Assembly (NCBI RefSeq): GCF_000406145.1
Contig: NZ_CM001976.1
Span: 687,260 to 719,259, forward strand
Length of the DNA stretch: 32,000 nt
Source of the DNA: Dickeya dadantii NCPPB 898
GTDB lineage: Bacteria > Pseudomonadota > Gammaproteobacteria > Enterobacterales > Enterobacteriaceae
Reading direction: 5' to 3'
Shown: positions 6,816-28,011 of the stretch, one piece after another
How positions within the stretch are numbered: the first letter of the stretch is position 1
How the letters are laid out: each line of letters begins with the position of its first letter
Program-made: the position numbers and the translations under genes
Notes under the pieces: generated by a model
Seen by the model: the letters and a program-made list of their open reading frames with translations, nothing else
What the model was told of the DNA's origin: nothing
Databases searched by the model: none

Positions 6816-7466
6816 ATGTTAGGCATTCACGATATTTCACTGTTTATCCTGTCCGGCATTTTGCTCAACATCATGCCGGGGCCGGATTCGTTGCTGATTA
6901 TGACGAAGAGTTCGTCACAGGGATGGCGCGCGGGTTCTGCTGCGGCGCTGGGCATCGGTTCCGGCACGCTGGTGCATGTTCTGGCCGCGGCGTTGGGGTT
7001 GTCCGCCATTCTGGCTACCTCGGCCACCGCGTTTACGGTGGTGAAAGTGCTGGGGGCGGTCTATCTGGTTTATATCGGCGTGCAGGCGTTACTGGATAAA
7101 TCCGCCCACCGCGCCAAGGCCGACAGCGGCGCGCTGCCGGCCAACCGGCCTGTGCTTTCCATGCGGAAAATCTACTGGCAGGGGTTTCTCACCAACGTGC
7201 TAAATCCGAAAGTGGCGCTGTTCTTTCTGGCGTTCGTGCCTCAGTTCATTGACCCGCAGGCACCGCAGAAAGCGCTGGCGTTTATCGTTTTAGGATTGAT
7301 CTTCAATTTCAACGGCATGCTGTGGTGTCACTTTTTGGCCGCGTCTACCGCATTGGCCAGCAGCAAGCTGAAAGTCAGCAAGGCGGTGCGTTTCTGGCTG
7401 AATAAGACCATTGGTGTGCTGTTTATTTCACTGGGCGTGAAGCTGGTGATGACGGCAAAAAACTGA
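6816..7466 (+). CDS. LysE/RhtB-family amino-acid or homoserine-lactone exporter
   Basis: The 216-aa membrane protein from the ATG at 6816 has the family N-terminal signature (LNIMPGPDSLLI) and NPK..LFFLAF.PQF. The track ORF starts at 6747, but the extra 23 residues are hydrophilic and atypical for the family. Confidence 0.85.
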   Translation: MLGIHDISLFILSGILLNIMPGPDSLLIMTKSSSQGWRAGSAAALGIGSGTLVHVLAAALGLSAILATSATAFTVVKVLGAVYLVYIGVQALLDKSAHRAKADSGALPANRPVLSMRKIYWQGFLTNVLNPKVALFFLAFVPQFIDPQAPQKALAFIVLGLIFNFNGMLWCHFLAASTALASSKLKVSKAVRFWLNKTIGVLFISLGVKLVMTAKN

Positions 7467-7535
7467 TCGGTACAGACATGTTCGTTCACCGAGATGAGCG
7501 GCCGCTGGCGCCGCTCATGCGGTGGTGAGCGCCGG

Positions 7536-8144
7536 TTATTTCAACCAGCCTTTTGCCTGCGCGTCTTCCAGATGCTGCTTCAGATAGCCCCACAGCGCCG
7601 GATTAATATCGTGGATAAAATCGTTGCGACTCAGCACCTGCTCCAGCCGAATACCGTGCTCCACCCAGCTCTGGCCGCCGTTGTGCAGGTTCATCAGCAC
7701 CGGCATCACGCGGTCTATCATTAGCGCAAAGCGCGCTTCAGCGGTGTCGCCGGCTTCGTACTCGTGCCACAGCGCCAGAAACTGGTCGCGTTGTGGTGGC
7801 GGCAGCAGGCCGAAAATACGTGCAGCGGCGGCTTGCTCCTGCTCCTGAATGGCTGCGCGGGCTTTCAGGTCATACACCAGCACGTCGCCGGCATCGATCT
7901 CCACGATGTCGTGAATCAGCGCCATTTTCAGCACGTGGGTGATGTCGATGCCGTCATCGGCATAAGGCGCCAGACTCATCACCGCAACCGCAAAATGCCA
8001 GCTGTGCTCTGCGGAGTCTTCCTGACGATCGGTGCCAATCACCTTGGAGCGGCGCTGAACACTCTTGAGTTTGTCGATTTCCATCAGAAACCGGACGACA
8101 TCGGTCATGGGGCCGAAATCCAGTACGGGTAAAGCGAGCGACAT
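7536..8144 (-). CDS. HD-domain metal-dependent phosphohydrolase (YfbR-like 5'-nucleotidase family)
   Basis: The 202-aa ORF has EDSAEHSWH...ALIHDIVEIDAGD, the H..HD..D pattern of HD hydrolases. Confidence 0.75.
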   Translation of the reverse strand: MSLALPVLDFGPMTDVVRFLMEIDKLKSVQRRSKVIGTDRQEDSAEHSWHFAVAVMSLAPYADDGIDITHVLKMALIHDIVEIDAGDVLVYDLKARAAIQEQEQAAAARIFGLLPPPQRDQFLALWHEYEAGDTAEARFALMIDRVMPVLMNLHNGGQSWVEHGIRLEQVLSRNDFIHDINPALWGYLKQHLEDAQAKGWLK

Positions 8145-8352
8145 CCGTTAATCTCCTGCAATAAAGAGGCTCCATTGTAGGGGATGCACCATAGGATGAA
8201 CATGCACGATTACCGTCTGAAAGCCGATGATTTTTATTTTAGCGTACAGGTGTACACTGGAATTGTTCTCAGTTAATCTGCTCAAAGCTTGCTCAGCGTG
8301 GCAGGGAAGGCCGCAGGCGCAGGCGTATGGGTAAGTGTGACAAGAGGTTGGC

Positions 8353-9003
8353 ATGAAGAAAAAAACGGGGGAGTCGGGGTATACGCTGGCGGAAGAAATC
8401 GCCAACAGTATCAGCCATGGAATCGGTTTTGTCTTTGGGATTGTCGGGCTGGTGTTATTACTGGTGCAGGCGGTGGACAACGGCGCCACTTCTCTCGCTA
8501 TCACCAGTTATAGTTTATATGGCGGTAGCCTGATTTTACTGTTTCTCGCATCGACGTTGTATCACGCCATTCCTCATCAGCGCGCAAAACGCTGGCTGAA
8601 GAAATTTGATCACTGCGCCATCTATCTGCTGATTGCCGGGACCTATACGCCTTTTCTGCTGGTGGGGCTTAATTCGCCGCTGGCGCGCGGACTGATGATC
8701 GCTATCTGGAGCCTGGCGCTGCTGGGCGTCATATTCAAGCTGGCGTTTGCACACCGGTTTAAGGTGCTGTCGCTGATTACCTATCTGCTGATGGGCTGGC
8801 TGTCGCTGATTGTGGTCTATCAGCTGGCGATGAAACTGTCCATCGGCGGCGTGACGCTGCTGGCGATAGGCGGCGCGGTGTATACGCTGGGCGTGGTGTT
8901 TTACGTCTGCAAGCGTATTCCGTTCAATCACGCCATCTGGCATGGATTTGTGCTGGGGGGCAGCGTGTGCCACTTTCTGGCGATTTACCTGTACGTGGAA
9001 TAA
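8353..9003 (+). CDS. yqfA: Hemolysin-III / PAQR-family inner membrane protein
   Basis: [30 protein letters not shown]...[32 protein letters not shown]...[22 protein letters not shown] is nearly colinear with E. coli YqfA. It sits next to ygfZ, as in E. coli. Confidence 0.92.
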
Positions 9004-9032
9004 CCCGTGCGGATATTGCTGTTGGTCGGATG

Positions 9033-9066
9033 AGCATCAGAGAACCGCGGCTCCCTGATGCTTTTG
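9033..9066 (+). terminator. Hairpin plus short T-run between the convergent yqfA and ygfZ genes
   Basis: agcatcag (9033-9040) pairs with ctgatgct (9055-9062), followed by tttg. The 14-nt loop contains ccgcgg. Confidence 0.5.
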
Positions 9067-9075
9067 AAGGCCCGG

Positions 9076-10056
9076 TTACTCTTCCAGCGAGTAAGGCAGC
9101 GGCTGAATAGCGAGCTGGCTGCCGCTGTCGTCGCGTACCCGCAGCACGCTGTCAGCTTCCAGATCGTTGTTCAGCACCGCCTGAACCCACAATGTACCGT
9201 CATGCAACTGGCTGGCCGCCAGCACGGTGCCGGTACGGCGCCAGTTATCGCCGAGTTTCAGGTCCAGCTCATCGCCCGCTGCGGGCGCCTGCGCGCCAGT
9301 GCCCGCCAGCCAGTACAGCGCACGTTTGTTGGCGCCGCGGTATTTGGCGCGCGCGACCATTTCCTGACCGGCGTAGCATCCTTTAGTGAAGCTAATGCCT
9401 TGCAGCGCCTGTAAGTTGGTGGCTTGTGGAATGAACTGTGCGCTGTTGACGCTGTCAATAATGGGCTGCCCGGCGGCGATATCCAGCGCCTGCCATTGGC
9501 GGCTGTCGTTGAGTTTGACGCTGGATGACAGCGTTTCGATGAGCGCGGCGGCGCGTTGTGCATCCAGCACCAGCAGGAAACGTTCGGCGGGGTGAGCCAG
9601 ATGCAGCAGCGTCGCTCCCGGTTGCTGTACCACGGCGTTATCGGCGTCGGGCAGGGCATAGAACAGGGGCGCCAGATGCGCGCGGATGTCGAGACCCACA
9701 GCCCCCAGAAGCACGACGTTGTCATCGGCCGCGATGGTGGTTTTGGAGAAGACAGCGTATTTTTTCAGCTCCGCCAGTTGGGTATCTCTAATGCTGCGGC
9801 GCTCCAGATAAGCCAGCCCGTCGCCATAATGGAACAGGCGCAGGTTGCTCCACATTTTACCTTTGGCGTCGCAGTGGGCGCACAACACGTGCTGACCGGC
9901 CTGTAGGGTATCAACGTCGGCCGTAAGCTGGCCCTGAAGGTATTTGACCGTGTCCGGCCCGGCCAGGGTGACCAGCGCCCAATCATCCAGCGATATCAGG
10001 GTAGCGGGCAGTTGAGCGGAAGAAAACAGCGGTTGTGCGGTAAACGGATGAGCCAT
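9076..10056 (-). CDS. ygfZ: tRNA-modifying folate-binding protein YgfZ
   Basis: The 326-aa ORF contains the [12 protein letters not shown] motif (the conserved K.GCY.GQE of YgfZ/GcvT-like folate binders) and is divergent from sdhE, as in E. coli. Confidence 0.93.
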
Positions 10057-17021: not shown

Positions 17022-18120
17022 ATGTTTGAAATCAATCCGGTAAAAAACCGCATTCAGGACCTGTCTGAACGGACAGCTGTTCTGAGGGGGTATCTTTGAC
17101 TATGACGCCAAGAAAGAGCGTCTGGAAGAGGTAAACGCCGAGCTGGAACAGCCCGACGTATGGAACGAACCTGAACGCGCGCAGGCGCTGGGGAAAGAGC
17201 GTTCCTCCCTGGAAATGATTGTCGACACCATTGATCAGATGGTTCAGGGGCTGGACGATGTTTCCGGTCTGCTGGAACTGGCGGTGGAAGAAGACGACGA
17301 AGACACCTTCAACGACACCGTTGCCGAGCTGGATCAGCTGGAAAGCAAGCTGGGTCAGCTGGAATTCCGCCGTATGTTCTCCGGCGAGTACGACAGCGCC
17401 GACTGCTACCTCGACCTGCAGGCCGGTTCCGGCGGCACCGAGGCGCAGGACTGGGCCAGCATGCTGCTGCGCATGTATCTGCGCTGGGCGGAAAGCAAAG
17501 GCTTCAAGACCGAAATCATTGAAGAGTCCGAAGGTGAAGTGGCCGGTATCAAGTCCGCCACCATCAAAATCATGGGCGAATATGCGTTTGGCTGGCTGCG
17601 TACCGAAACTGGCGTACACCGTCTGGTGCGTAAGAGCCCGTTCGATTCCGGTGGTCGCCGTCACACCTCGTTCAGCTCTGCCTTCGTCTACCCGGAAGTG
17701 GATGACGACATTGATATCGAGATTAATCCCGCGGACCTGCGTATCGACGTATACCGCGCGTCCGGCGCCGGCGGCCAGCACGTTAACCGTACTGAATCCG
17801 CGGTGCGTATCACCCACATTCCCACCAATATCGTTACTCAGTGCCAGAACGATCGATCCCAGCACAAGAACAAAGATCAGGCCATGAAGCAGCTGAAAGC
17901 CAAGCTGTATGAGTTTGAAATGCAGAAGAAGAACGCGGAGAAACAGGCGCTGGAAGACAACAAGTCCGACATCGGCTGGGGCAGCCAGATTCGTTCTTAT
18001 GTGCTGGATGACTCCCGTATTAAAGACCTGCGCACCGGGGTGGAAACACGCAATACCCAGTCGGTGCTGGACGGTGATCTGGACAAGTTTATCGAAGCAA
18101 GTTTAAAAGCGGGGTTATAA
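17022..18120 (+). CDS. prfB: Peptide chain release factor 2, made by a programmed +1 frameshift: join(17022..17096,17098..18120)
   Basis: Frame 0 reads [25 protein letters not shown] and then TGA at 17097-17099. The +1 frame from GAC (17098) continues in the frame of the 17215..18120 ORF to the stop. The total is 365 aa, the length I remember for E. coli RF2. SPF and GGQ motifs are present ([24 protein letters not shown]). Confidence 0.96.
17085..17100 (+). promoter_or_regulatory. prfB autoregulatory +1 frameshift site (internal SD-like AGGGGG, 3-nt spacer, CTT TGA C slippery/stop context)
   Basis: The sequence agggggtatctttgac matches the classical E. coli prfB recoding cassette. Confidence 0.95.
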
Positions 18121-18129
18121 GGAATTCTC

Positions 18130-19647
18130 ATGTCTGAACCACAAAATCAGGGTGCCGAACAGGCGCTGGATCTTAATAACGAACTCAGAACGCGCCGCGA
18201 GAAACTGGCGTCGTTGCGTGAAACCGGCGTGGCTTTCCCGAATGATTTCCGCCGTGACAGCATTTCTGATCGACTGCACGCCAGCTACGACGAAAAAGAC
18301 AACGAAGAGCTGGAAGCGCTGGGTCTGGAAGTGAACGTGGCCGGCCGCATGATGACCCGTCGTATCATGGGCAAGGCGTCGTTCGTGACGCTGCAGGACG
18401 TGGGCGGCCGCATTCAGCTGTATGTGTCGCGCGACGATCTGCCGGAAGGCGTCTACAACGAACAGTTCAAAAAATGGGACCTCGGCGACATCGTCGGCGC
18501 GCGCGGCAAGTTGTTCAAAACCAAAACCGGCGAGTTGTCGATCCACTGTACCGAACTGCGTCTGCTGACCAAGGCGCTGCGCCCGTTGCCGGACAAGTTC
18601 CACGGCCTGGCGGATCAGGAAACCCGTTACCGTCAGCGCTATCTGGACCTGATCGCTAACGAAGAGTCTCGCCATACTTTCCGCGTACGCTCGCAGATTA
18701 TGGCCGGCATCCGCCAGTTCATGGTCGGCCGCGACTTCATGGAAGTGGAAACGCCGATGATGCAGGTGATCCCCGGCGGTGCGGCGGCGCGTCCGTTCAT
18801 CACCCATCACAACGCGCTGGATATCGACATGTACCTGCGTATCGCGCCGGAACTGTACCTGAAGCGTCTGGTGGTGGGCGGTTTTGAACGCGTGTTCGAA
18901 ATCAACCGCAACTTCCGTAACGAAGGCGTGTCGCCGCGTCACAACCCTGAGTTCACCATGATGGAACTCTACATGGCGTACGCGGACTACAAAGACCTGA
19001 TCGAACTGACCGAGTCGCTGTTCCGCACGCTGGCGCAGGACGTGCTGGGCGCGACCGAAGTGCAGTACGGCGACCAGGTGTTCGACTTCGGCAAGCCGTT
19101 CGAGAAGCTGACCATGCGTGAGGCGATCAAGAAATATCGCCCGGAAACCAACATGGCGGATCTGGACAGCTTCGACGCGGCGAAAGCCATCGCGGAATCT
19201 ATCGGCATCAAGGTGGAGAAGAGCTGGGGTCTGGGCCGCATCGTCACCGAGATCTTCGAAGAAACCGCCGAAGCACATCTGATTCAGCCGACCTTCATCA
19301 CTGAGTACCCGGCGGAAGTCTCTCCGCTGGCGCGTCGTAACGACCAGAATCCGGAAATTACCGACCGCTTTGAATTCTTCATCGGCGGACGTGAAATCGG
19401 CAACGGTTTCTCCGAGCTGAACGACGCTGAAGATCAGGCGCAACGCTTTCAGGATCAGGTTGCTGCGAAAGACGCCGGCGATGACGAAGCCATGTTCTAC
19501 GACGAAGACTACGTTACCGCGCTGGAACACGGCCTGCCGCCGACCGCCGGCCTGGGCATCGGTATCGATCGTCTGGTGATGCTGTTCACCAACAGCCACA
19601 CCATCCGCGACGTGATCCTGTTCCCGGCGATGCGTCCGCAGAAGTAA
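18130..19647 (+). CDS. lysS: Lysine--tRNA ligase (class II)
   Basis: The 505-aa ORF lies 9 nt after prfB and carries class II motifs ([19 protein letters not shown]), colinear with E. coli LysS. Confidence 0.96.
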
Positions 19648-19673
19648 TTCTGTCGGGTGACGATTGCACGATG

Positions 19674-19705
19674 AAAAACCGGTGCCTGCTGGCACCGGTT
19701 TTTTT
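19674..19705. terminator. Bidirectional Rho-independent terminator between lysS (+) and the ferritin-like gene (-)
   Basis: aaaaaccggtgcc-tgct-ggcaccggttttttt is a symmetric hairpin with an A-run on one side and a T-run on the other, so it reads as a terminator on both strands. Confidence 0.9.
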
Positions 19706-19730
19706 ACGGCTGCAATTTGCGCCGGGCGCG

Positions 19731-20792
19731 CTAAGGCGTAAACCAGCTGAATGTCGGCGTGCCATGACGCTGTTCGGCATCGCCGGGTATCGGCTGGCTG
19801 GCCATATTGACGGCGATGGGCACCATGCCGTGCATGCCGTTCATGATCGCGGTATACAGGGCTCTCGGTTGGCCGCTAAAGGCTTGCTGCAATTGCAACA
19901 GCATCAGCGTGTATTGCCGGTTGAATTGCTCATTGAGCGCCGCCAGCGGTGTGTCCGGCGCGTAATCGCCGGCAACCGGGTTGGTCTTGATCGGGTACAC
20001 GGCCTGATAGTCGACCGGAAAGGCCTCGCCGCTGGGCGGTTGGTGCGGCTTATCGCCGGGCTGGTAATAGCGGGCGAAATAGATCTCCCTGAACCGATAG
20101 AAATGCGCCAGTTCCATCGGCTGCCCGAAGGTCCGGTGGTCATCGTCGTAGATGCTGGTGGATGATCCTTCACCCTGTTCGATAATGGTATTAATCGCTT
20201 CCCGGGCGCTGGACAGATTGGTGATCACGATAGGTTTGCCGCCGCTGGACCAGTAATAATCCTGACTGATCTGCAAGGCGAGGTCGCCGCAAAAAACGGC
20301 GCTTTCGCCATACTTACCGCACAGTTCTTCCAGTTGATGCAGAATGTTGAGGTAAAAGTCGCCGATCGTCAGGCCGTCGATATCCAGTTCGTCGGCGGCC
20401 ATCAGCATCAACGGCTCCCGTTCCGCCCAGTCGGAAGGCAGTTCAATCATCATAAAAATTTCGATCGCCTGCGGGCTGAACGCCTGCAGGTTGACGTCAA
20501 ACTTCCGGTCTTTGAAGCGCTTTCCTCTGAACTCCATCGCCAGCGGATAGCTCGGCAGCGAGTCCGGCCCGAGGTCGACCCGGCCGCCCAGGCTGTTGAT
20601 CAGGTTACCGACCAGCGTCATGTGCAGCATCTCTTCAATCATCACCGCCCTGATGAGGTTGGCGGGCACCCGGTTTTTATCCGGATGCAGGCTGACGAGT
20701 GCCATCATGTAAGGCGGAATGGTGCCAAACTCCAGCGTCATGGCGGTTTTCAGCCAGTCGAGCAATTCGGTTTTTTGGGTTTCAAGGCTCAT
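19731..20792 (-). CDS. Ferritin-like (four-helix-bundle, possibly di-metal) domain protein of unknown function
   Basis: The N-terminal LEFGTIPPYMMALVSL...MIEEMLHMTLVGNLINSLGG resembles the Pfam Ferritin-like family also seen in VioB-type proteins (LE..tIP.Y..A.yS.....EE..H). The ATG at 20792 lies 6 nt after AAGGAG and 10 nt after the GMC stop codon. The track start at 20813 overlaps the upstream gene. Confidence 0.65.
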   Translation of the reverse strand: MSLETQKTELLDWLKTAMTLEFGTIPPYMMALVSLHPDKNRVPANLIRAVMIEEMLHMTLVGNLINSLGGRVDLGPDSLPSYPLAMEFRGKRFKDRKFDVNLQAFSPQAIEIFMMIELPSDWAEREPLMLMAADELDIDGLTIGDFYLNILHQLEELCGKYGESAVFCGDLALQISQDYYWSSGGKPIVITNLSSAREAINTIIEQGEGSSTSIYDDDHRTFGQPMELAHFYRFREIYFARYYQPGDKPHQPPSGEAFPVDYQAVYPIKTNPVAGDYAPDTPLAALNEQFNRQYTLMLLQLQQAFSGQPRALYTAIMNGMHGMVPIAVNMASQPIPGDAEQRHGTPTFSWFTP

Positions 20793-20802
20793 GTTCGGCT
20801 CC

Positions 20803-22398
20803 TTACAGGCCACGATGGTGGAGGTGATCCGCCAGACGCAGAGACAGGGCCGCCAACGTCAGGGTTGGGTTGATGGCGCCGGTGGAAGGGAACACCGCAT
20901 TCGAGCAGATGTAGACATTGTCGGTACCGTGAATGCACAGATGCGGATCGACCACCCCTTGTCTGGCATCGTGGCTCATCCGGGTCACGCAGGCGGCGTG
21001 GTCGGCGCGCCAGGAAACGCTGGGTTTGCCTGACAGCGTGGCGCCAATTTGCCCGAACAGTTGGCTGACATGGGACTGAATTTCCATCATCCGTTGGTCG
21101 AAAGTGGTGTCTTTGGTGTAGTCGACAAGGGTTTCTTCCATTCCCAGATGATTGATCTTGTTAAAGTTAAGGATGCGGTTGTCATAGCGTGAAAACACTT
21201 CGAGCATGCCGTGCAACTGGATTTGCGTCGGACCGGAGACATAGGCATCCATCTTTTCGCGCGTCAGGCCGTTTTGCATCTGCTGCGCCAGATTGAGCAG
21301 CGGGCTGCCGGGCGGGTTAATCAGTATGAATTTCCCTTTGGCCTGTTGTTCCGGGCTGTCGAAATGGCGGGAGCACAGGGTGGGAAAATTCATCTCCGGT
21401 TGCAGCGCCTGCGGGTTATCCGGCAGGTTGGCGGTGAAGATGAAATAAGGGTGAGTAATAAAATTTCTGCCGACCAGGTCATGCTGGTTGCCAAGCCCAC
21501 CGGGCCAGTTTGTCGACGCTGAACGCAGCAGCAGTTTGGCGGATTCGATAGTGCCTGCCGCCACGATGATGCGTTTGGCATGGATAACTTCCGTTTGTCC
21601 ACTCTCTTTATCCACGCATTCCACGCCGGTTGCCGACTGCTTGTCGTCCATCAGGATTTTCCCCACGACGACGTTGGTGCGGATATGGAAGTTTTCGTGG
21701 TTTTCCCATTCCTGCATATCGTTGAGGAAGTTGGTGGCGGCGTAACGGGCGCCGAACGGGCAGTACTTGCAGGTTCCGGTCGTCTGGCACGGCGCGTGGC
21801 GCGACACGGTATCCGTTATGCCGTGTCGCGCGATTGGGACATGACTATAACCGATGCCGAGCGACTCCATCGCCGTCGCCATCGGTTGGTCTTCCAGCGA
21901 ATAGGGGAAAGCAGGGAACGGGTAGCCCGCGCTGCGCGGTACGGTGGGGTCGTGGGAATCGCCGGAGACGCCGATGTAATGCTCCGCGGCGCAGTAATAG
22001 GGTTCCAGTTCGTGGTAATCGAATGGCCAGTCGATCGACTCGCCGGTATTGCTGTGCAGGTAAAAATCTTCCGGTTTAAGACGGAAGGACCAGCCGCCCC
22101 AGTGGATGGTCGAACCGCCGTAGGTGAGCGCACGCGCACCGGCCAGTGGGATTTCCGTACCGCCCGCGTTCAGGTTTTCTCCCGGATGATCCCGGTCCGG
22201 GTAGGGGAGATCGTAATACCGTTCATAAGGCAGCTTGCCGTTGACCAGATAGGTCGTCCAGGTGTTGTAATCCTGCATTTTCACCCTGCCGCCGGCTTCC
22301 AGCAGCAGGATGGAAGCGTTGGGATCGTAATCCAGCAGACGCTGCGACAGGGCGGCGGCGGCGATGCCAGAACCAATAATTAACGTATCGACACGCAT
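20803..22398 (-). CDS. GMC-family FAD-dependent oxidoreductase
   Basis: N-terminal Rossmann motif DTLIIGSGIAAAAL...LLLEAGG and a C-terminal GMC block (H...C.TRM......GVVD..L.IHGTDNVYICSNAVFPSTGAINPTLTLAALSLRLADHL). The ATG at 22398 is preceded by GAGGG and follows the upstream stop (22409-22411) by 10 nt. No signal peptide is visible. Confidence 0.88.
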   Translation of the reverse strand: MRVDTLIIGSGIAAAALSQRLLDYDPNASILLLEAGGRVKMQDYNTWTTYLVNGKLPYERYYDLPYPDRDHPGENLNAGGTEIPLAGARALTYGGSTIHWGGWSFRLKPEDFYLHSNTGESIDWPFDYHELEPYYCAAEHYIGVSGDSHDPTVPRSAGYPFPAFPYSLEDQPMATAMESLGIGYSHVPIARHGITDTVSRHAPCQTTGTCKYCPFGARYAATNFLNDMQEWENHENFHIRTNVVVGKILMDDKQSATGVECVDKESGQTEVIHAKRIIVAAGTIESAKLLLRSASTNWPGGLGNQHDLVGRNFITHPYFIFTANLPDNPQALQPEMNFPTLCSRHFDSPEQQAKGKFILINPPGSPLLNLAQQMQNGLTREKMDAYVSGPTQIQLHGMLEVFSRYDNRILNFNKINHLGMEETLVDYTKDTTFDQRMMEIQSHVSQLFGQIGATLSGKPSVSWRADHAACVTRMSHDARQGVVDPHLCIHGTDNVYICSNAVFPSTGAINPTLTLAALSLRLADHLHHRGL

Positions 22399-22408
22399 GA
22401 TGAAGCCC

Positions 22409-22873
22409 TCAGAATGAACGATAGGGTACTGGAGCGCCGGGAACGTTGGCGCCGCCAAAGTACCCCGGATAGTTCAGCGCGCCGCCGAAGGATTTGAAGC
22501 CGCCCAGCGATAACTGTAGGGCGATGAATTCATTGGAAACTTTCTGCCGGGTAATGGTCATCGGCGTCAGGGCCGGGGGCTGGTTGGCGCTGGCGTCGGT
22601 AAACAGAACGGTATAGGCGTCTTCCGGGCCATGCTCCTGTATCAACTGCGCGATCACCGTTTGAGCGGTGGCGTAATATTGTTGGTACAGCGGGTCGGTA
22701 TTAATGCGGTTCGCCATAAAGGAATACAGCAGCGGCTGATAGCTGGGCGAGTCGTCCAGATTGCGCCAGAATTTGCCGATGTGCACAAACAGCTGCCACA
22801 TGGCGTCCAGCGTAGTTGTACCCAGCGGCGCCAGTTGGGCGCTAAGGTAATGCTGTGTGTTGATGTCAGACAT
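22409..22873 (-). CDS. 154-aa protein of unknown function; first gene of the GMC operon, possibly a small subunit
   Basis: The ORF has host-like codon usage and is translationally coupled to the GMC gene. I recognise no motif, twin-arginine signal or TM segment. The small-subunit idea rests only on analogy with multi-subunit GMC dehydrogenases. Confidence 0.55.
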   Translation of the reverse strand: MSDINTQHYLSAQLAPLGTTTLDAMWQLFVHIGKFWRNLDDSPSYQPLLYSFMANRINTDPLYQQYYATAQTVIAQLIQEHGPEDAYTVLFTDASANQPPALTPMTITRQKVSNEFIALQLSLGGFKSFGGALNYPGYFGGANVPGAPVPYRSF

Positions 22874-22896
22874 AGGTCCTCACAGAAATGCGCAGG

Positions 22897-22943
22897 AGAA
22901 AGAAAACGGCAAGGTTCTAAGCATTGCGGGTGAAAACCTTGCC
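22897..22943 (-). terminator. Hairpin plus U-tract between the phosphoesterase gene and the three-gene operon (terminator or attenuator)
   Basis: On the minus strand, GGCAAGGTT-(18-nt loop)-AACCTTGCC is followed by GTTTTCTTTCT. It ends about 25 nt before the ATG of the 154-aa gene. Confidence 0.45.
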
Positions 22944-23023
22944 AAAACACAGCGGGGACGCGGGCCGAGCGGTCGCTCCCCACTGATACTGTCGTCCTGA
23001 TCCCGGTCTTGGCCGGGAAACGG

Positions 23024-24451
23024 TTAACGGGAATTCAGCCAGTCTTGTGTGCGCTGGCTGATGTAGTCGGCGTACTCGGCCGCAGTGGTCATGTCGGGCA
23101 TTTGATGGTGCATTCCGCCTTGCGCATCCGATACCGGCAGCTCGCTGACCAGCTCGGCATGGACCTGTTGCAGGTGGGATGGCATGCCCTGCGCCGGATT
23201 TTTTCCGGTCGAGGAGGGAACGGTCACCCCAGTCAGCGGATCGTCGGTGCGCGGCGTGGCGAGCGTCAGTACGTCCCCCACGCCGGGGGCGGCGGCATCG
23301 CGGTTTGTCAGAGGCGACAGCGCCCAGCGTTGTTGCACGGTTTTGAGGATCGAGGTGTGGTCCAGCGGTGTCGCCTGATCCGCAACCCGGAATACGGTGC
23401 CCGCTTCAATCCAGGGTGAAACCAGCACGGTGGGCACGCGCGGCCCGAAACGGGTAAAGTCGAAACCGTACTCGCCGGTACTGGCATCCGGCGGCGTGGC
23501 GTTCCACGGCGGAGGCAGATGATCGTAACAGCCGCCGTGCTCATCGTAGGTAATGATCAGCAACGTCTTGTTCCAGAGCGGGCTGGTGCGCAGGGCATAG
23601 TAAACATCGTGAATCAGCTGTTCTCCCAATGCGACGTCGGCGACCGGGTGCTGGCTATTGCCGTCCTCACCCCAACTGGGTTCCAGAAAGACATACGACG
23701 CCAGCGTGCCGTTGCGGGCCGCCTGCTGAAAATCGCTGAACAAACCGAAGTGACTATCATCAGCCTGTTGGGTATCGGGAAAATTGTGGCGGGTCAGCGG
23801 CGGCTGGTCATAACCGTAGATGGACCAGGTGACTGCGGACTGGCTGAGCCGACCAAAAATGGACGGACAAGTGTAGCTCTTGGTCTTGTCATTCATGTGT
23901 CCTTGCGAGGTGGCAGCCGAAACGAACGCCCGGTTGGGCAGCGTCTCGGTGGGGGCGGAGCCGTACCAATGATCACAGACGGCGTAACCTGTTGCCAGCG
24001 CGGATAACACCGGAAGCGTCTGTGGCGTAAAGCACCCCATGATATTGCCGGCCTGGGTGCCCGGCAGGATTTTCCAGCCGCTTTCCTGCGACTGCCAGCC
24101 CAATGTGTAGGCGTAGTCAGTGACAAATCCCTGATTGCTGTTGGCGGGTGGGGCGCCTGGCGCATGAATATCGCCAAACAGTTGCGAATTCGTCGCGTAA
24201 TACCCTTCTCCGGGGTCGGAACCCGGCATGAAATACGCATTGGGCGTATCCGGCGTAATTTTAAATACCTGAACCGGATTGCCGTTACTGTCTGGATTGG
24301 TTTCATTGCCGGTTAAACCGGCAAAGGGATGCCCGAGCGGAGAAAGGTTATTCCGGTCAGCGTAAAGAAATCCCAGCATATGATCAAAAGAGCGGTTTTC
24401 CAGCATTAATACGACAATATGCTCAATATTCGATAACCCAGAATTAGCCAT
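23024..24451 (-). CDS. Phosphoesterase-family protein (phospholipase C / acid phosphatase AcpA-like) without a recognisable export signal
   Basis: [19 protein letters not shown] is the hallmark N-terminal motif of the PLC/AcpA phosphoesterase family. The protein is 475 aa with SD GAGAGG. The N-terminus MANSGLSN has no hydrophobic core or RR motif. Confidence 0.8.
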
Positions 24452-24490
24452 AGCAACCTCTCAGCGGCTTTTGATGTAAAGTCTTTTTAT

Positions 24491-24504
24491 ATCAATATAT
24501 TGAT
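24491..24504. promoter_or_regulatory. Perfect 14-bp palindrome ATCAATATATTGAT about 40 bp upstream of the phosphoesterase ATG (candidate operator)
   Basis: Self-complementarity was checked by hand. It lies in the AT-rich divergent spacer between the phosphoesterase and AraC genes. Confidence 0.3.
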
Positions 24505-24843
24505 GTTTTTTGCTTGGATTCCTGGCCTGGTGGGGTGTACGTGATGGAACCAATTAATACAAGGGCGGGAATAAAGAATTTTATTCGCGTTATGTATCGA
24601 TAATTTAGTCCGGCGGCCTGAACTGTCAAATTAAAAATAAATGACATGCCGAAGTGTCTATTTTTAATATAAATATTTTTTTGTCAGGAATAGATATGGC
24701 GTAAATAATTAATCCGCTTACTTTACCTGGGGAAATTAACGCGGAATAATTATTACCGGAGAATGTCGTTGGTGGAAAAACGGGCATCGCTTCTTGTTGC
24801 GATAGCCGCCATGTTATCGTCAGTGTGTTGTTTTTCACCGGGG

Positions 24844-25605
24844 ATGATGATGATCACGTACCGTAATGATGCGTTTGAGCTGGCGTTGTTAACCAACGGC
24901 AAGCGTTTCCCCCGTCACAGTCATGACGAGTTCGTCATCAGCGCCAATCTGGGCGGGCTAGAGCAGGTCTGGCTGGACGGCGACACCTTTGTTGCCGATA
25001 CCTCAATGGTCACGACCTATAATCCCGGCCAGTTGCAGGGCAGCGAACACAGCCACGACCGCTGGCAATGCGCCTCGCTGTACGTGCAGCCTCAGGCGTT
25101 CGACGACTATTTCCAGCAATCGTTGCGGTTTTCACGCCCGGCCTGCGTGTCTCCCCGGCTGGCCCGCCAATTGACCCAACTGGTGACGGCGGTGATGACC
25201 CCCGCGCAGCGTGAAGAGCAGATCGTGATGTGGTTGTCTGAACTGATGACGCAGACCTGCGGCGCTTCTGTTCCCCATCCCATACGCGAGCCGGCCCGTA
25301 TCCGCCGTATCAAAGCGCAACTGGCGAGCGATCTGGCCGAGATTCCAACGCTGTCTGAACTGGCGCGACAGGAAGGCATTTCCGCCGCGCATCTGGTGCG
25401 CGGTTTTACGCATTCGGAAGGTATCTCGCCGCTGGCGTGGCTGATGCAGGTGCGTATGCGCCGAGCGCGTATCTGGCTGCGTCAGGGGATGCCTATCAGC
25501 CAGGTGGCGCTGGAGTTGGGGTTTGCCGATCAGGCGCACTTCACCAAGACGTTCGGCCGTTATAACGCCATGACGCCGGGGCAATTTCGCGATATCAAAT
25601 TTTGA
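24844..25605 (+). CDS. AraC/XylS-family transcriptional regulator with an N-terminal cupin-like sensor domain
   Basis: The C-terminal double HTH (LSELARQEGISAAHLVRGF......SPLAWLMQVRMRRARIWLRQG.PISQVALELGFADQAHFTKTFGRYNAMTPGQFR) is typical. The start is uncertain: ATGs at 24844/24847/24850 are preferred, and the track start at 24763 adds a hydrophobic leader atypical for the family. Confidence 0.85.
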   Translation: MMMITYRNDAFELALLTNGKRFPRHSHDEFVISANLGGLEQVWLDGDTFVADTSMVTTYNPGQLQGSEHSHDRWQCASLYVQPQAFDDYFQQSLRFSRPACVSPRLARQLTQLVTAVMTPAQREEQIVMWLSELMTQTCGASVPHPIREPARIRRIKAQLASDLAEIPTLSELARQEGISAAHLVRGFTHSEGISPLAWLMQVRMRRARIWLRQGMPISQVALELGFADQAHFTKTFGRYNAMTPGQFRDIKF

Positions 25606-25693: not shown

Positions 25694-26365
25694 ATGCTAC
25701 TGGTGATGTTGAGCGGCGTGCTGCTGTCGTTGTCGCTGTGTCTGGATTTGGGGATCGTCAATACCGCCATTATTAATCGCGGTATTCGGGACGGCGTCGG
25801 GGCGGCGTTTTTTATCGGCCTGGGGTCCTGCTTCGGCGATCTGATTTACGCCACGCTGTCGGTACTGGGGATGGCGGTGATTTTCAACTATACGCCGGTA
25901 CGCTGGCTGCTGTGGATTGGCGGCGGCGGCGTGCTGCTGTGGCTGTCGTTCAACATGGCACGTAGCGCCTGGCGCGACTACCGCCAGCATCGCGGTTTGC
26001 CGATCGACACCGTTACCGTATTTTCACCACGCGCGTCGTCACCGGCTCACCGCGATTTTATCAGCGGAATGGGCATGGCGCTGGCATCGCCCAGCGCGTT
26101 GCTGTGGTTTGCGGCGGTCGGCGGGACGTTGATTGCCCAGGCGACCGACGGCTCCGCCAGACAGGTAGCGCTGTTTCTGGGCGGATTCTTTATCGGCGGC
26201 GTGATCTGGACACTATTCATGGCGCTGCTAATCCAGTTCGGGCGCGGCGCGTTGAAAGGCCGACTGTCGTTTTATTGCAGCGCGTTATCCGCCGTGCTGT
26301 TCGCCGTGTTCGCCGCACAGGTGATTGTGAACGGATACCAAACGCTGTGGACGCAGCCCGGCTGA
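25694..26365 (+). CDS. LysE/ArgO-type basic amino-acid exporter family protein
   Basis: The 223-aa polytopic membrane protein has LDLGIVNTAIINRGIRDG, resembling the ArgO/LysE N-terminal LGPQN....QGIR block. It lies directly downstream of the AraC gene. Confidence 0.8.
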   Translation: MLLVMLSGVLLSLSLCLDLGIVNTAIINRGIRDGVGAAFFIGLGSCFGDLIYATLSVLGMAVIFNYTPVRWLLWIGGGGVLLWLSFNMARSAWRDYRQHRGLPIDTVTVFSPRASSPAHRDFISGMGMALASPSALLWFAAVGGTLIAQATDGSARQVALFLGGFFIGGVIWTLFMALLIQFGRGALKGRLSFYCSALSAVLFAVFAAQVIVNGYQTLWTQPG

Positions 26366-26450: not shown

Positions 26451-26524
26451 GCGGGCGTAGTTCAATGGTAGAACGAGAGCTTCCCAAGCTCTATACGAGG
26501 GTTCGATTCCCTTCGCCCGCTCCA
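26451..26524 (+). tRNA. glyU: tRNA-Gly, anticodon CCC
   Basis: The 74 nt fold by hand into a cloverleaf: acceptor GCGGGCG/CGCCCGC, D stem GTTC/GAAC, anticodon stem AGAGC/GCTCT with loop TTCCCAA, T arm GAGGG-TTCGATT-CCCTT, and an encoded CCA. It matches E. coli glyU as remembered. Confidence 0.95.
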
Positions 26525-26654: not shown

Positions 26655-26873
26655 ACCTCCCGTAACAGCCTGACCCAGCGGGGCATTGTTGAGAGGCCTA
26701 CATCCATAGCTTTGGCCGCTTCGGCGATGGTTTAGTTTTGATCAACAACCAACTGAGCTGATTCGCGTTTGAACTCTGCACTGAAATTTCTTCTTTTCAT
26801 TGGGATACCTGTATTGTTCTGAGGTGAGCATATCACCTCTGTTCAGGTGGCCAAATTCAGTGTGGCCACTACA
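26655..26873 (-). mobile_element. Truncated left end of an IS3-family (IS911-like) insertion sequence: terminal IR plus a decayed orfA fragment
   Basis: The minus strand begins TGTAGTGGCCACACTGAATTTGGCCACC (TG... terminus typical of IS3 IRs) at 26873. From the ATG at 26800 it reads [47 protein letters not shown], close to IS911 OrfA/InsN ([49 protein letters not shown]) but with an in-frame TAA. Similarity is lost near 26655, and no orfB or right IR is present. Confidence 0.8.
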
Positions 26874-26918
26874 CGCTTTCTGCTCTGATGTGTAGTGAAT
26901 GCGTTTTCTTTTTTTCAT
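26874..26918 (-). pseudogene. 15-codon 5' stub of an ORF (MKKRKRIHYTSEQKA) cut off by the IS3-family end; possibly a transposase or HTH gene start
   Basis: A strong SD (AAGGAGGG) precedes the ATG at 26918, and the reading frame runs straight into the IS terminal TG at 26873. The basic N-terminus followed by YTxEQK resembles N-termini of IS transposases, but 15 residues are too few for a family call. Confidence 0.35.
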
Positions 26919-27036
26919 GGTAGCGCCCTCCTTGTTTAAGGATAGCGTTGCATCGATCAGTTGAACTCGCAGCGAAAAGCGGACGTTATGCCGTGAGTAG
27001 AGATGGTATGGAAGTGTCTAGATTAGTCATGATGAT

Positions 27037-28011
27037 TCAGTGTGGGCTGCTAAGCGGCTCCTCTTGCTTAAAATTCTCACTCGGCCATACGGTTTTTTTC
27101 TGCATTGCATTGTCGAGGCTATCGTACAATTTTTTGCCAAGCGACATTGCTTGATCCAACAACTGTTCTAAATCTTGCTCTGTAATCACCACTGGATTGC
27201 CGTCTTTATCCTTACCGCCACGATGCACTAAGTGGTTGCGCTTTAGCGTTGCGATTTCAATCGCGTCTATCGGCCAGTCTTTTTGTACGTTAATGTCATA
27301 CGTAGCCTTGTAACGCTTCACAACTTGGTTTGTGTTATGCCAGCTGGCACTAATCAAATGCTCCTTGATTGCTTTGATTAGTTCCTCCCTTATTTTTTCA
27401 ATGGGTTCACCTTTGAACGGCAAAGCTACAATTTCTTTGCTTACTTTGAACTCCGTCTTACCCTTTTCTATGAAGTCGGCAATATAGGACTCATCTTTAT
27501 CTATAGAATTAATGAATAACTCGACATAAAGCGTTTCCAAGGCTGTAATAACGTTGGTGTACAAGATACTAAGCAGACGATCTTCTTGCTCATTTGTATA
27601 TTCACCTTTTGCCAGTGATTTTATTCCGTCAATATTTTCAACGAACTTAAAAAAAGGTTTTTCGGAAGATGTTACTGCATCGTACAAGTCTTCATCATAC
27701 CAATCATCAATATTATTGGAATTGCCTGACCATTCGTAACACTGCTCTTGCAACTCGTTTACTAACTCTTGGATATAACCAAACTTTACGTACCCTTCAA
27801 ACATTGCTTGCAGCTCTTCACTTGCCTCGTATGGGCCGCCATATATGTAAGCATATCCACCTTCACGGGTTTCATAAGGGCAGGAATTTGCGGGGTCTTC
27901 GAAGTTCTCAAAAAACCAATTGCGCATTACTTCGAGCTGGTTTGCTTTACTTATGTATTGCAAAGATTTGAGCGGGACTTTCTTCCCATTGACATTAAAA
28001 ACTACTTTCAC
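27037..28011 (-). CDS. Orphan AT-rich ORF (324 aa from GTG 28011; 355 aa if TTG 28104) with a C-terminal HEPN-like RNxxxH motif; candidate RNase or abortive-infection effector
   Basis: This is the only long ORF in a visibly AT-rich segment. GTG 28011 is preceded by AAGGAGA. The TTG at 28104 coincides with the -35 hexamer of a plausible promoter, so the longer form is unlikely. The C-terminal LKRNHLVHRGG fits the HEPN R-x4-6-H (RN...H) signature within predicted helical sequence. The N-terminal roughly 200 aa (..MRNWFFENFEDPANSCPYETREGGYAYIYGGPY..) match no family I recognise. Confidence 0.6.
   Translation of the reverse strand: MKVVFNVNGKKVPLKSLQYISKANQLEVMRNWFFENFEDPANSCPYETREGGYAYIYGGPYEASEELQAMFEGYVKFGYIQELVNELQEQCYEWSGNSNNIDDWYDEDLYDAVTSSEKPFFKFVENIDGIKSLAKGEYTNEQEDRLLSILYTNVITALETLYVELFINSIDKDESYIADFIEKGKTEFKVSKEIVALPFKGEPIEKIREELIKAIKEHLISASWHNTNQVVKRYKATYDINVQKDWPIDAIEIATLKRNHLVHRGGKDKDGNPVVITEQDLEQLLDQAMSLGKKLYDSLDNAMQKKTVWPSENFKQEEPLSSPH

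Follow-up and report, generated by a model that had tools for sequence, protein, structure and literature searches.

The 32,000-nt window of Dickeya dadantii NCPPB 898 analysed here carries three tightly coupled genes, predicted to encode a 154-aa protein, a GMC flavoprotein and a ferritin-like protein of Pfam family PF12902. The same arrangement is common to many phyla, apparently without prior study, and the enzyme set is uncharacterised. Sequence and gene context give about an even chance that it is a cytoplasmic FAD/Fe-S dehydrogenase in which the ferritin-like subunit stands in place of a cytochrome c subunit. A cytoplasmic oxidation system combining flavin with a (di)metal centre had been proposed in the original prediction, which is supported, and none of the checks made speaks against it.

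Arrangement of the gene block

The features of the three-gene block are as follows, in window coordinates.

19674..19706, no strand assigned, hairpin rich in GC with an A-run on one side and a T-run on the other (aaaaaCCGGTGCCtgctGGCACCGGttttttt), read from the sequence
19731..20792, minus strand, ferritin-like gene, 353 aa
20803..22398, minus strand, GMC flavoprotein gene, 531 aa
22409..22873, minus strand, small-subunit gene, 154 aa, ATG start at 22873

With internal ATG starts, exactly 10 nt separate each stop codon from the next start; longer alternatives from upstream TTG/GTG codons (22458, 20813) are present in the ORF listing. An SD-like sequence, read from the sequence, precedes each start (GAGGA, GAGGG and AGGAG for the small, GMC and ferritin-like genes, respectively). 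The ORFs and the sequence thus confirm the tight coupling that had been described, with 10-nt spacers and a separate SD for each gene. On one side of the block is the lysS terminator hairpin (about 19674-19706), and on the other, at 26451, tRNA-Gly(CCC). As had been stated, this position is outside the E. coli gene order, and no match to the block was found among 5,426 complete E. coli genomes. The hairpin separates the convergent lysS and ferritin-like genes and is a probable bidirectional terminator; the automatic scan did not list it. A PADLOC search for defence systems gave no matches, and Rfam returned nothing credible.

Conservation of the three genes

Every complete orthologous locus examined has the order small protein, GMC protein, ferritin-like protein, and these loci come from at least 7 phyla, bearing out the expectation that the triad would co-occur outside close relatives. 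It is present in Roseateles, Cupriavidus, Zobellella, Chitinimonas, Pseudomonas amygdali, Paraburkholderia, Bradyrhizobium and Colwellia, and also in cyanobacteria, Acidobacteriota, Bacteroidota, Verrucomicrobiota and Gemmatimonadota (Longimicrobium). Because the genes overlap or lie a few nt apart in 20 orthologous loci of distant taxa (median distance from small gene to GMC gene, -4 nt), the arrangement is far beyond chance. Pairwise identities of the three proteins co-vary (r = 0.72-0.86), and the neighbours of the cassette vary widely between loci. Neither a cytochrome c gene nor a signal peptide was seen in any annotated context examined. Literature searches found no study of this pairing of a GMC protein with a PF12902 ferritin-like protein.

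The GMC flavoprotein

Profile assignments, which had been suggested as a check, gave GMC_oxred_N/C (Pfam) for the middle gene and PF12902 for the last, with no Pfam match for the first. The closest solved relatives of the GMC protein over its full length are the large subunit of fructose dehydrogenase (FDH; PDB 7w2j, 1.5e-46) and the alpha subunit of the Burkholderia cepacia FAD-GDH (BcGDH; 6a2u, 5.6e-45). By sequence it is a member of the FAD-GDH/FDH clade, and the comparison originally drawn with multi-subunit GMC dehydrogenases was correct. A GxGxxG motif begins at residue 9, with G9-S10-G11 conserved, and the N-terminus shows no signal. Across 121 homologues H467 and N510 do not vary, and BcGDH has a His/Asn catalytic pair (PMC6719666). 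H99, which aligns with the region of the covalent-FAD His, is 93% conserved in the same set. The following feature, which the original prediction had not pointed out, was also identified.

21760..21789, minus strand, codons of the Cys triad C204-x5-C210-x2-C213 (PCQTTGTCKYCPFGARY), candidate 3Fe-4S loop

The three cysteines are 100% conserved in the 121 homologues, and in fructose dehydrogenase their loop corresponds by alignment to CCGNNNCMPICPIGAMY. In the homologous loop of BcGDH, Cys212/218/222 bind a 3Fe-4S cluster (PMC6719666). The C-x5-C-x2-C spacing is one residue shorter than the C-x5-C-x3-C of the solved enzymes, which counts against a cluster. Cys204/210/213 are a candidate site, probably for an Fe-S cluster of the 3Fe-4S type.

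In a second, larger clade the GMC protein has the canonical C-x5-C-x3-C spacing (motif RCQGNNNCVPICP, read from the sequences) and is accompanied by a PF12902 gene and a different small protein of ~170 aa. The two small-protein families are not detectably related (hhalign probability 1.3%). Operons of the second clade resemble those for sugar catabolism, with GH15, IolE-like and TIM-barrel genes.

The small protein

The small protein has no Pfam, NCBIfam or PDB match. It is predicted to be a helical bundle (AF2 pLDDT 81) with a disordered tail (residues 129-154), and the family has a highly conserved C-terminal Gly/Pro/aromatic tail, GGFxxFGAxNYPGYFGGANVPGxPxPYR. Assignment to a known PF13618 or PF12318 small subunit was considered and rejected. 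Pfam scans of 23 family members and 7 Tat-bearing relatives gave no match, including to PF13618 (Gluconate_2-dh3) and PF12318 (FAD-SLDH). A profile search of the PDB gave only spurious repeat-protein matches and none to gamma chains, and the model had no Foldseek match at E < 1. The lack of any detectable resemblance, in sequence or fold, to the gamma subunit of known structure or to PF13618 and PF12318 counts against equivalence with those small subunits.

The family comprises 262 representative clusters in a profile search. Its longer members carry a twin-arginine extension of 50-70 aa and sit upstream of GMC genes, whereas the Dickeya protein is without the extension. The Tat-bearing relatives precede GMC genes that have the same Cys motif and are not accompanied by a ferritin-like gene. 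In contrast, where the family member is Tat-less, the ferritin-like gene is always present. By these sequence criteria, the small protein, which had been left as unknown in the original prediction, is a Tat-less member of a GMC-associated small-subunit family that is itself unannotated.

The ferritin-like protein

The third gene product matches PF12902 at 5e-54 (183.9 bits, where the gathering cut-off is 22.3; positions 1-220 of the 221 in the profile), in agreement with its earlier placement in a ferritin-like family whose domain also occurs in VioB-type enzymes. The best match in both sequence (6.8e-8, about 20% identity) and fold (E 1.5e-8) is 3hl1 (Caulobacter CC_0557), the only solved PF12902 member, which is a structural-genomics entry named 'ferritin like protein' with no function given. 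Matches of the predicted fold (AF2 pLDDT 89) to bacterioferritin and Dps are weak (E about 0.2-1). Helix 1 begins at residue 3. Together with the position of GxGxxG in the GMC protein and the missing Tat extension of the small protein, this upholds the claim that none of the three proteins has a signal.

In an alignment of 27 sequences, with 58% to 23% identity to the window protein, E21, E53, E54, H57, E117, E208 and H230 are invariant. Candidate metal ligands are therefore retained, as E21, E53/E54-x-x-H57, E117, E208 and H230, where their loss would have told against the prediction. E227 of the second ExxH is not conserved although H230 is, which counts against a classical di-iron motif. 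Tyr28, Tyr147 and other non-ligand residues are also invariant. No Pfam or NCBIfam match to the Mn_catalase family was found at E <= 0.1. In loci without a GMC gene, PF12902 is fused to two CDGSH 2Fe-2S domains and Fer4_19 (6 of the 6 tested). PF12902 thus always adjoins what would be an Fe-S electron conduit, since either the GMC Cys motif lies beside it or the CDGSH/Fer4_19 domains are fused in cis. The protein is a candidate di-metal redox subunit.

Proposed function

The three proteins are proposed to assemble into a heterotrimeric dehydrogenase located in the cytoplasm. An alcohol would be oxidised at the FAD of the GMC subunit, with His467 and Asn510 as the catalytic pair, and electrons would then move to an Fe-S cluster, probably 3Fe-4S, at Cys204/210/213. 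The 154-aa protein would act like the 'hitch-hiker' small subunit of periplasmic relatives, with its conserved C-terminal tail packed on the flavoprotein near the cluster. Loss of the Tat signal from this protein would keep the enzyme in the cytoplasm. The ferritin-like subunit would take up the electrons at a carboxylate/histidine-bridged di-metal site and, in the simplest role, would be an electron sink that reduces O2 or H2O2 to water.

BcGDH (6a2u, 8grj; gamma-alpha-beta) and Gluconobacter FDH (7w2j) resemble this set in having a catalytic subunit that is a full-length homologue (about 1e-45), the His/Asn pair, a Cys-rich loop at the 3Fe-4S position, and a gene for a small helical partner immediately upstream, in a family here that includes Tat-bearing relatives. 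Unlike them, the Dickeya set lacks a tri-haem cytochrome c subunit and a Tat signal, and it is probably located neither at the membrane nor in the periplasm. Its third gene is PF12902, its Cys spacing is C-x5-C-x2-C and its small subunit comes from the separate unannotated family. The mechanism proposed here has parallels in rubrerythrin, alternative oxidase and flavodiiron proteins, where di-iron centres take electrons from Fe-S or flavin and reduce H2O2 or O2 to water, but the folds and families differ, none is coupled to a GMC protein and none is PF12902.

The electron-sink, oxygenase and peroxidase roles of the ferritin-like subunit would all be compatible with the sequence and context data. 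As a di-iron oxygenase, desaturase or coupling enzyme, it would make the set a self-sufficient oxygenase that performs a two-step transformation, using either the GMC electrons or the carbonyl/imine product; we consider this unlikely. PF12902 is the domain family of VioB and RebD, which couple the products of a partner flavin oxidase. The pairs VioA/VioB and RebO/RebD are similar in that a flavoprotein oxidoreductase is genetically paired with a PF12902-type protein. However, VioB and RebD are haem enzymes of about 1000 aa that dimerise indole-3-pyruvate imine, their partner flavoprotein is an amino-acid oxidase instead of an Fe-S GMC dehydrogenase, and they lack a small subunit. The best modelling template for VioB is 3hl1 (PMC9705886). 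The Fe-S fusions would fit O2-activating di-iron enzymes, which need electron input, and the invariance of Tyr28, Tyr147 and other non-ligand residues also favours an oxygenase. The sugar-catabolic appearance of the second-clade operons argues the other way, and we know of no need for an extra oxygenase in 3-keto-sugar routes. The widely varying neighbours likewise fit a generic redox module rather than substrate-specific tailoring.

In another reading, which is improbable, the GMC protein would use O2 as an ordinary oxidase, and the ferritin-like protein would be a Mn/Fe catalase or peroxidase clearing the H2O2 formed in the cytoplasm. RebD/VioB-type proteins have catalase-like activity, and the pattern of 3-4 Glu and 2 His also resembles the ligands of Mn catalase, both of which favour this role. 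There is also a direct precedent in Nesocodon nectar, where the GMC alcohol oxidase NmNec3 works with the ferritin-like catalase NmNec2 (PMC8812537), a ferritin-superfamily protein that handles an oxygen-derived by-product. The nectar proteins are, however, secreted plant proteins with no Fe-S cluster and no evident complex, and NmNec2 is of a different, desiccation-related ferritin-like type. Moreover, a catalase needs no electron donor, yet PF12902 always adjoins Fe-S in the GMC protein or in a fusion; the Pfam Mn_catalase match is lacking, and the GMC protein falls in a dehydrogenase clade that passes electrons to a partner and not to O2. A non-catalytic ferritin-like protein, serving in iron storage or donation or in protection or assembly of the cluster, or no complex at all, the products being merely co-regulated pathway enzymes, is very improbable. 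In its favour, the fold is weakly like those of Dps and bacterioferritin, and in BcGDH the small subunit stabilises a cluster that is exposed at the surface (PMC6719666). Against this, the protein has 353 aa with large non-ferritin insertions, its catalytic-type residues are strictly invariant down to 23% identity, and the CDGSH/Fer4 fusions and universal translational coupling are atypical of storage proteins.

Probable extension of the unit upstream

Further features lie upstream of the triad.

22874..23023, minus strand, intergenic region between the phosphoesterase and small-subunit genes, 150 nt
23024..24451, minus strand, PF04185 phosphoesterase gene, 475 aa, no signal peptide
24452..24762, no strand assigned, AT-rich control region separating the divergent phosphoesterase and AraC-family genes
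24763..25605, plus strand, AraC-family regulator gene (HTH_18, AraC_binding, HTH_AraC), product with a ligand-binding domain, divergent

The block had been described as a three-gene operon. The triad stands, but in Dickeya the unit very likely reaches the fourth, upstream gene. Its product, of the phospholipase C/acid phosphatase family (Pfam PF04185, 1.2e-68), is closest to plant non-specific phospholipase C4 (Arabidopsis NPC4, PDB 8hav, 9.3e-59 over residues 4-416). Loci L096-L098 have this four-gene block too, with different flanks; in P0287/L090 the small subunit is fused to a phosphoesterase homologue, and another homologue adjoins the cassette in L061. Phosphoesterase neighbours are found in a minority of loci only, and no subfamily assignment was obtained for the EEP-family phosphoesterases of Roseateles and Cupriavidus. 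Within the Dickeya lineage, the unit probably begins with the phosphoesterase gene.

The 150-nt intergenic region contains three hairpins (RNA fold -60.8 kcal/mol, z = -2.8), with no promoter-like site and no Rfam match. The last hairpin is terminator-like, with an 11-bp stem followed by GUUUUCUUUCU. Its position, after the phosphoesterase gene and before the triad, makes it uncertain whether the four genes are transcribed together. All strong sigma-70-like sites in a 5.5-kb scan fall in the divergent region, on both strands, where GC drops to 0.43-0.49. Judging from its position, the AraC-type regulator is likely to control the block. The co-located NPC-type phospholipase C homologue would probably release the dehydrogenase substrate in the Dickeya lineage.

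Distribution and significance

Matches were obtained in at least 581 species-level genomes in one scan, and a homologue is encoded on 174 plasmids. The PF12902 domain, which is found also in VioB and RebD, defines a large family with no assigned function, and the cassette could provide one. A wider proposal, which we put forward tentatively and doubt more than we believe, is that PF12902 proteins may be previously unrecognised soluble di-metal terminal oxidases or oxygenases, wired via Fe-S to a GMC protein or to fused CDGSH/4Fe-4S domains. The Dickeya cassette would then oxidise an alcohol released by the NPC homologue, for which diacylglycerol-like, ceramide-like or head-group alcohols are candidates, and pass electrons directly to oxygen without a respiratory chain. 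Two observations hint at a role in the use of plant-derived compounds: a soft-rot pathogen has the cassette linked to a homologue of plant-type phospholipase C, and the cassette is abundant on rhizobial plasmids.

If the dehydrogenase reading is correct, the 3Fe-4S GMC dehydrogenases, a group employed in direct-electron-transfer biosensors, include a cytoplasmic form in which another kind of subunit accepts the electrons. The Tat-bearing two-gene and Tat-less three-gene forms offer a natural comparison for roles of the 'hitch-hiker' subunit other than export.

A 622-aa ORF in Calothrix PCC 6303 was considered as a fusion of GMC and ferritin-like proteins that would point to their interaction, and was rejected. 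It has lost the GMC C-terminus, including the catalytic Asn, and the first ~240 ferritin-like residues, an in-frame deletion that represents decay. P0316 also appears chimeric.

Organization of the three-gene cassette

The triad, between lysS and a tRNA-Gly gene, is made up of three genes, all on the minus strand:

22873..22409, minus: small protein, 154 aa; ORF with ATG start
22398..20803, minus: GMC flavoprotein, 531 aa; ORF with ATG start; Pfam GMC_oxred_N/C
20792..19731, minus: ferritin-like protein, 353 aa; ORF with ATG start; Pfam PF12902 'Ferritin-like' (5e-54)

The original prediction described three ORFs set 10 nt apart, each with its own ribosome-binding site, the last two encoding a GMC flavoprotein and a ferritin-like protein, and this arrangement was recovered in full. 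If the ATG codons are taken as starts, exactly 10 nt separate each stop from the next start, the SD-like sequences GAGGA, GAGGG and AGGAG precede the three starts, and the Pfam matches assign the middle and last genes as proposed. The proteins were also said to lack Sec and Tat signals, and there is no room for a signal peptide in any of them: the GMC protein has its GxGxxG motif from residue 9 and the ferritin-like protein its helix 1 from residue 3, and the small protein is without the N-terminal extension present in longer relatives. The ferritin-like protein is 99% identical to a D. dadantii protein, and the block, placed from the start outside the E. coli gene order, had 0 matches in 5,426 complete E. 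coli genomes.

The best-supported reading of these sequences is a cytoplasmic FAD/Fe-S dehydrogenase in which a di-metal ferritin-like subunit would replace the cytochrome c subunit of periplasmic relatives. The catalytic subunit type is common to the triad and the FAD-glucose dehydrogenase (FAD-GDH) and fructose dehydrogenase (FDH) complexes, but two defining features of those complexes, the cytochrome c subunit and a small subunit with a Tat signal, are absent, and the triad is therefore a variant of them rather than a member. The hypothesis is a concrete one for a widespread family; a literature search found no paper on the GMC/PF12902 pairing, and none giving stand-alone PF12902 proteins a function.

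The flavoprotein and its putative small subunit

The best solved relatives of the GMC protein, over its full length, are the FDH large subunit (7w2j, 1.5e-46) and the alpha subunit of the Burkholderia cepacia FAD-glucose dehydrogenase, BcGDH (6a2u, 5.6e-45), with ordinary GMC oxidases matching far more weakly. In BcGDH, the catalytic pair is His/Asn, and a 3Fe-4S cluster on Cys212/218/222 takes electrons from FAD and passes them to a tri-haem cytochrome c subunit (PMC6719666). The homologous loop here reads P-C204-QTTGT-C210-KY-C213-PFGARY. C204, C210, C213, H467 and N510 are invariant in 121 homologues, and H99, in the region of the covalent-FAD histidine, is 93% conserved. These Cys are spaced more tightly, by one residue, than those of the solved enzymes, and we can therefore only infer that the Cys204/210/213 loop carries a cluster.

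The small protein has no match in Pfam, NCBIfam or PDB sequences, even with its family profile, and Foldseek found no similar solved fold for its AlphaFold model, a helical bundle (pLDDT 81). An exhaustive profile search gave 262 representative clusters for the family. Many distant members are 190-230 aa long, with an N-terminal extension bearing a twin-arginine signal, e.g. MKRRDFICASAAMAL; a crude motif count found Tat-like sequences in 22 of 54 long members vs 1 of 76 short ones, and Pfam TAT_signal gave weak, sub-threshold matches in two long members. Context was looked up for three Tat-bearing members, one of them on a contig that ends just past the small-protein gene. In both readable contexts the gene is directly upstream of a GMC gene with the same C-x5-C-x2-C-P motif, and neither pair is followed by a ferritin-like gene. 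In the loci examined, a ferritin-like gene and a small subunit without Tat signal are found together. The 154-aa protein thus belongs to a third family of GMC small subunits, one that is unannotated, and is among its signal-less members. The most conserved segment is the C-terminal tail, GGFxxFGAxNYPGYFGGANVPGxPxPYR, predicted to be disordered when modelled alone. The BcGDH gamma subunit has a hydrophobic C-terminal loop that packs beside the 3Fe-4S cluster (PMC6719666), and by analogy the conserved tail may pack next to the putative cluster in the same way.

Distribution of the triad

A word-indexed search found homologues of the small protein to be rare and patchy (39 clusters). The triad extends beyond close relatives, with the gene order kept in six of the seven distant loci looked up (Roseateles, Cupriavidus, Zobellella and three metagenomic contigs) between otherwise unrelated flanks. 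In the seventh, the cassette of Calothrix sp. PCC 6303 (L001, 8469-10340), the genes have decayed: a single 622-aa ORF joins in frame a GMC part without its last ~30 residues, the catalytic Asn included, to only the last ~110 residues of the ferritin-like part, and the upstream small-subunit gene is intact.

A scan of one genome per species gave 80 loci, which were analysed with HMMs built from the three triad families. Ferritin-like identity to the query is 39% or more in 16 loci; all of these have an orthologous GMC gene directly upstream, and the small protein is also present in 15, the exception being a truncated contig. These loci are from Chitinimonas, Longimicrobium, Pseudomonas amygdali, Paraburkholderia, cyanobacteria, Acidobacteriota, Cyclobacteriaceae, Colwellia, Bradyrhizobium, Chthoniobacteraceae, Thermoanaerobaculia and Alteromonadaceae. 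The triad genes overlap or are a few nt apart (20 loci), and pairwise identities of the three proteins co-vary (r = 0.72-0.86). No neighbour common to most loci was found beyond the triad, whose behaviour is thus that of a self-contained module with horizontal mobility. On plasmids, 174 of them and for the most part rhizobial, ferritin-like homologues were also found.

Other genes adjoin individual copies. A DUF952 (PF06108) gene is directly beside the cassette in four loci of clade 1, the loci with the GMC and small protein of the window type (L007 11218-11850, L021 5178-5807, L023 9082-9696 and L024 3796-4536), and two DUF952 genes follow a Tat-bearing small protein and GMC pair at the usual place of the ferritin-like gene (L089, 8285-9224). 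A second, distantly related small-ORF and GMC pair (E about 1e-45 to the clade-1 GMC HMM) accompanies the triad in three Acidobacteriota loci and a Thermoanaerobaculia locus (L015 5823-8272, L017 3159-5494, L019 1775-4110 and L022 8978-11334). On Bradyrhizobium elkanii plasmid pS15H (L091, 6320-8029), the cassette lies amid IS elements, a HipA toxin gene and a NEL-type E3 ligase effector gene; the incomplete PLSDB gene table has a single GMC CDS there, a fragment of 240 nt that points to a further decayed copy.

The ferritin-like protein and its proposed role

The proposed metal site was examined in an alignment of 27 sequences, whose identity to the window protein runs from 58% to 23%. E21, E53, E54, H57, E117, E208 and H230 are invariant in all of them, and the candidate metal ligands are therefore conserved; T24, P26, Y28, N63 and Y147 are also invariant. 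E227 varies, which leaves the second ExxH of the classical pattern incomplete. The AF2 model (pLDDT 89) matches 3hl1, the sole solved PF12902 member (E 1.5e-8), whereas matches to bacterioferritin and Dps are weak (E about 0.2-1).

The remaining 64 of the 80 loci (ferritin-like identity 35-42%) split into two groups. In about 47, the ferritin-like gene directly follows the gene for a ~630-aa GMC. This GMC, too, lies closest to BcGDH (3e-69), and it has the canonical RCQGNNNCVPICP motif. The ~170-aa small protein of this group was rejected as a relative of the window family (hhalign probability 1.3%). Two xylose-isomerase-like TIM-barrel genes are usually present; in Rhizobium phaseoli they share an operon with the genes for a GH15 glycosidase and an IolE-like protein. 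This second cassette type (L025-L088; annotated example on a R. phaseoli plasmid, L092 4520-14364) has the order GMC with canonical 3Fe-4S motif, ferritin-like, ~170-aa hypothetical protein, IolE-like TIM barrel and second TIM barrel, with the GH15 gene before and MBL-fold and TPP enzymes after it in Rhizobium, and looks like a sugar or glycoside oxidation pathway.

The other group, about 17 loci, is without a GMC gene. In 6 of 6 tested, a single fusion protein combines the ferritin-like domain with two CDGSH 2Fe-2S domains and one Fer4_19 (4Fe-4S) domain (L043, L047, L056, L063, L070 and L082, at about 7400-9700 of each); these loci come from Actinomycetota, Rhodobacterales and Thermoanaerobaculia. 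This architecture appears undescribed, since the literature search found no paper on stand-alone PF12902 proteins. Judging from the domains and motifs, a predicted Fe-S centre thus always adjoins the ferritin-like domain, either on the partner flavoprotein or fused in cis.

This constant neighbour is the strongest comparative argument for an electron-fed, redox-active module. Most economically, the ferritin-like subunit would be an electron acceptor that makes water from O2 or H2O2; parallels for a di-metal acceptor of this kind are rubrerythrin, alternative oxidase and flavodiiron proteins. The Fe-S neighbour is obligatory and the cassette generic and context-independent, both of which favour an electron sink. 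An oxygenase or coupling enzyme, suggested by analogy with VioA/VioB, is less probable but compatible with everything computed. The same neighbour argues against a simple catalase or a storage protein. Other rivals are a peroxide scavenger, for which the nectar GMC oxidase and ferritin-like catalase pair provides experimental precedent (PMC8812537), and a non-catalytic subunit.

Flanking genes

A probable fourth gene is located upstream, beyond a 150-nt spacer, with other genes past it:

24451..23024: PF04185 phosphoesterase (Pfam), 475 aa, without signal peptide
25694-26365, plus: LysE-type exporter gene, after a gene for an AraC-family regulator divergent from the phosphoesterase gene
26451-26524, plus: tRNA-Gly(CCC), next after the exporter gene

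The best solved match of the phosphoesterase is plant non-specific phospholipase C4 (8hav, 9.3e-59). Its contexts elsewhere link it to the triad. The four genes recur together, between other flanks, in the closest non-Dickeya relative (GMC 80% identical). A 671-aa metagenomic protein (P0287; L090, 91-2106) joins a phosphoesterase homologue to the small subunit, and its ORF is followed after 2 nt by another gene; the contig is from a single sequencing run and a sequencing frameshift is possible. In an Anaerolineae genome, another homologue is found ~1 kb downstream of a cassette resembling that of clade 2, the larger set with a different GMC and an unrelated small protein. The triads of Roseateles and Cupriavidus are flanked by a phosphoesterase of the EEP superfamily, which is non-homologous. 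Sigma-70-like sites were found only in the AT-rich 24600-24780 region common to the phosphoesterase and divergent regulator genes. The spacer contains three hairpins, the last terminator-like, and co-transcription of all four genes is therefore plausible, not proven.

On the other side are two further genes:

17215-18120, plus: ORF with PCRF and RF-1 domains; Pfam match from profile position 37
18130-19647: lysS, after the prfB-like ORF

The first is consistent with prfB, which is known for a programmed +1 frameshift, here upstream of the ORF. Matches to Rfam ar35, an alphaproteobacterial sRNA, at 19668-19783 (minus) and 19603-19709 (plus) scored 28 and 24 bits, below the gathering score of 45, and are almost certainly an artefact of the lysS terminator hairpin. 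Past tRNA-Gly(CCC), the GC content drops to 0.39-0.45 (26800-27800) in a stretch that includes a 355-aa ORF with no Pfam match, and an island may have integrated at this tRNA gene.
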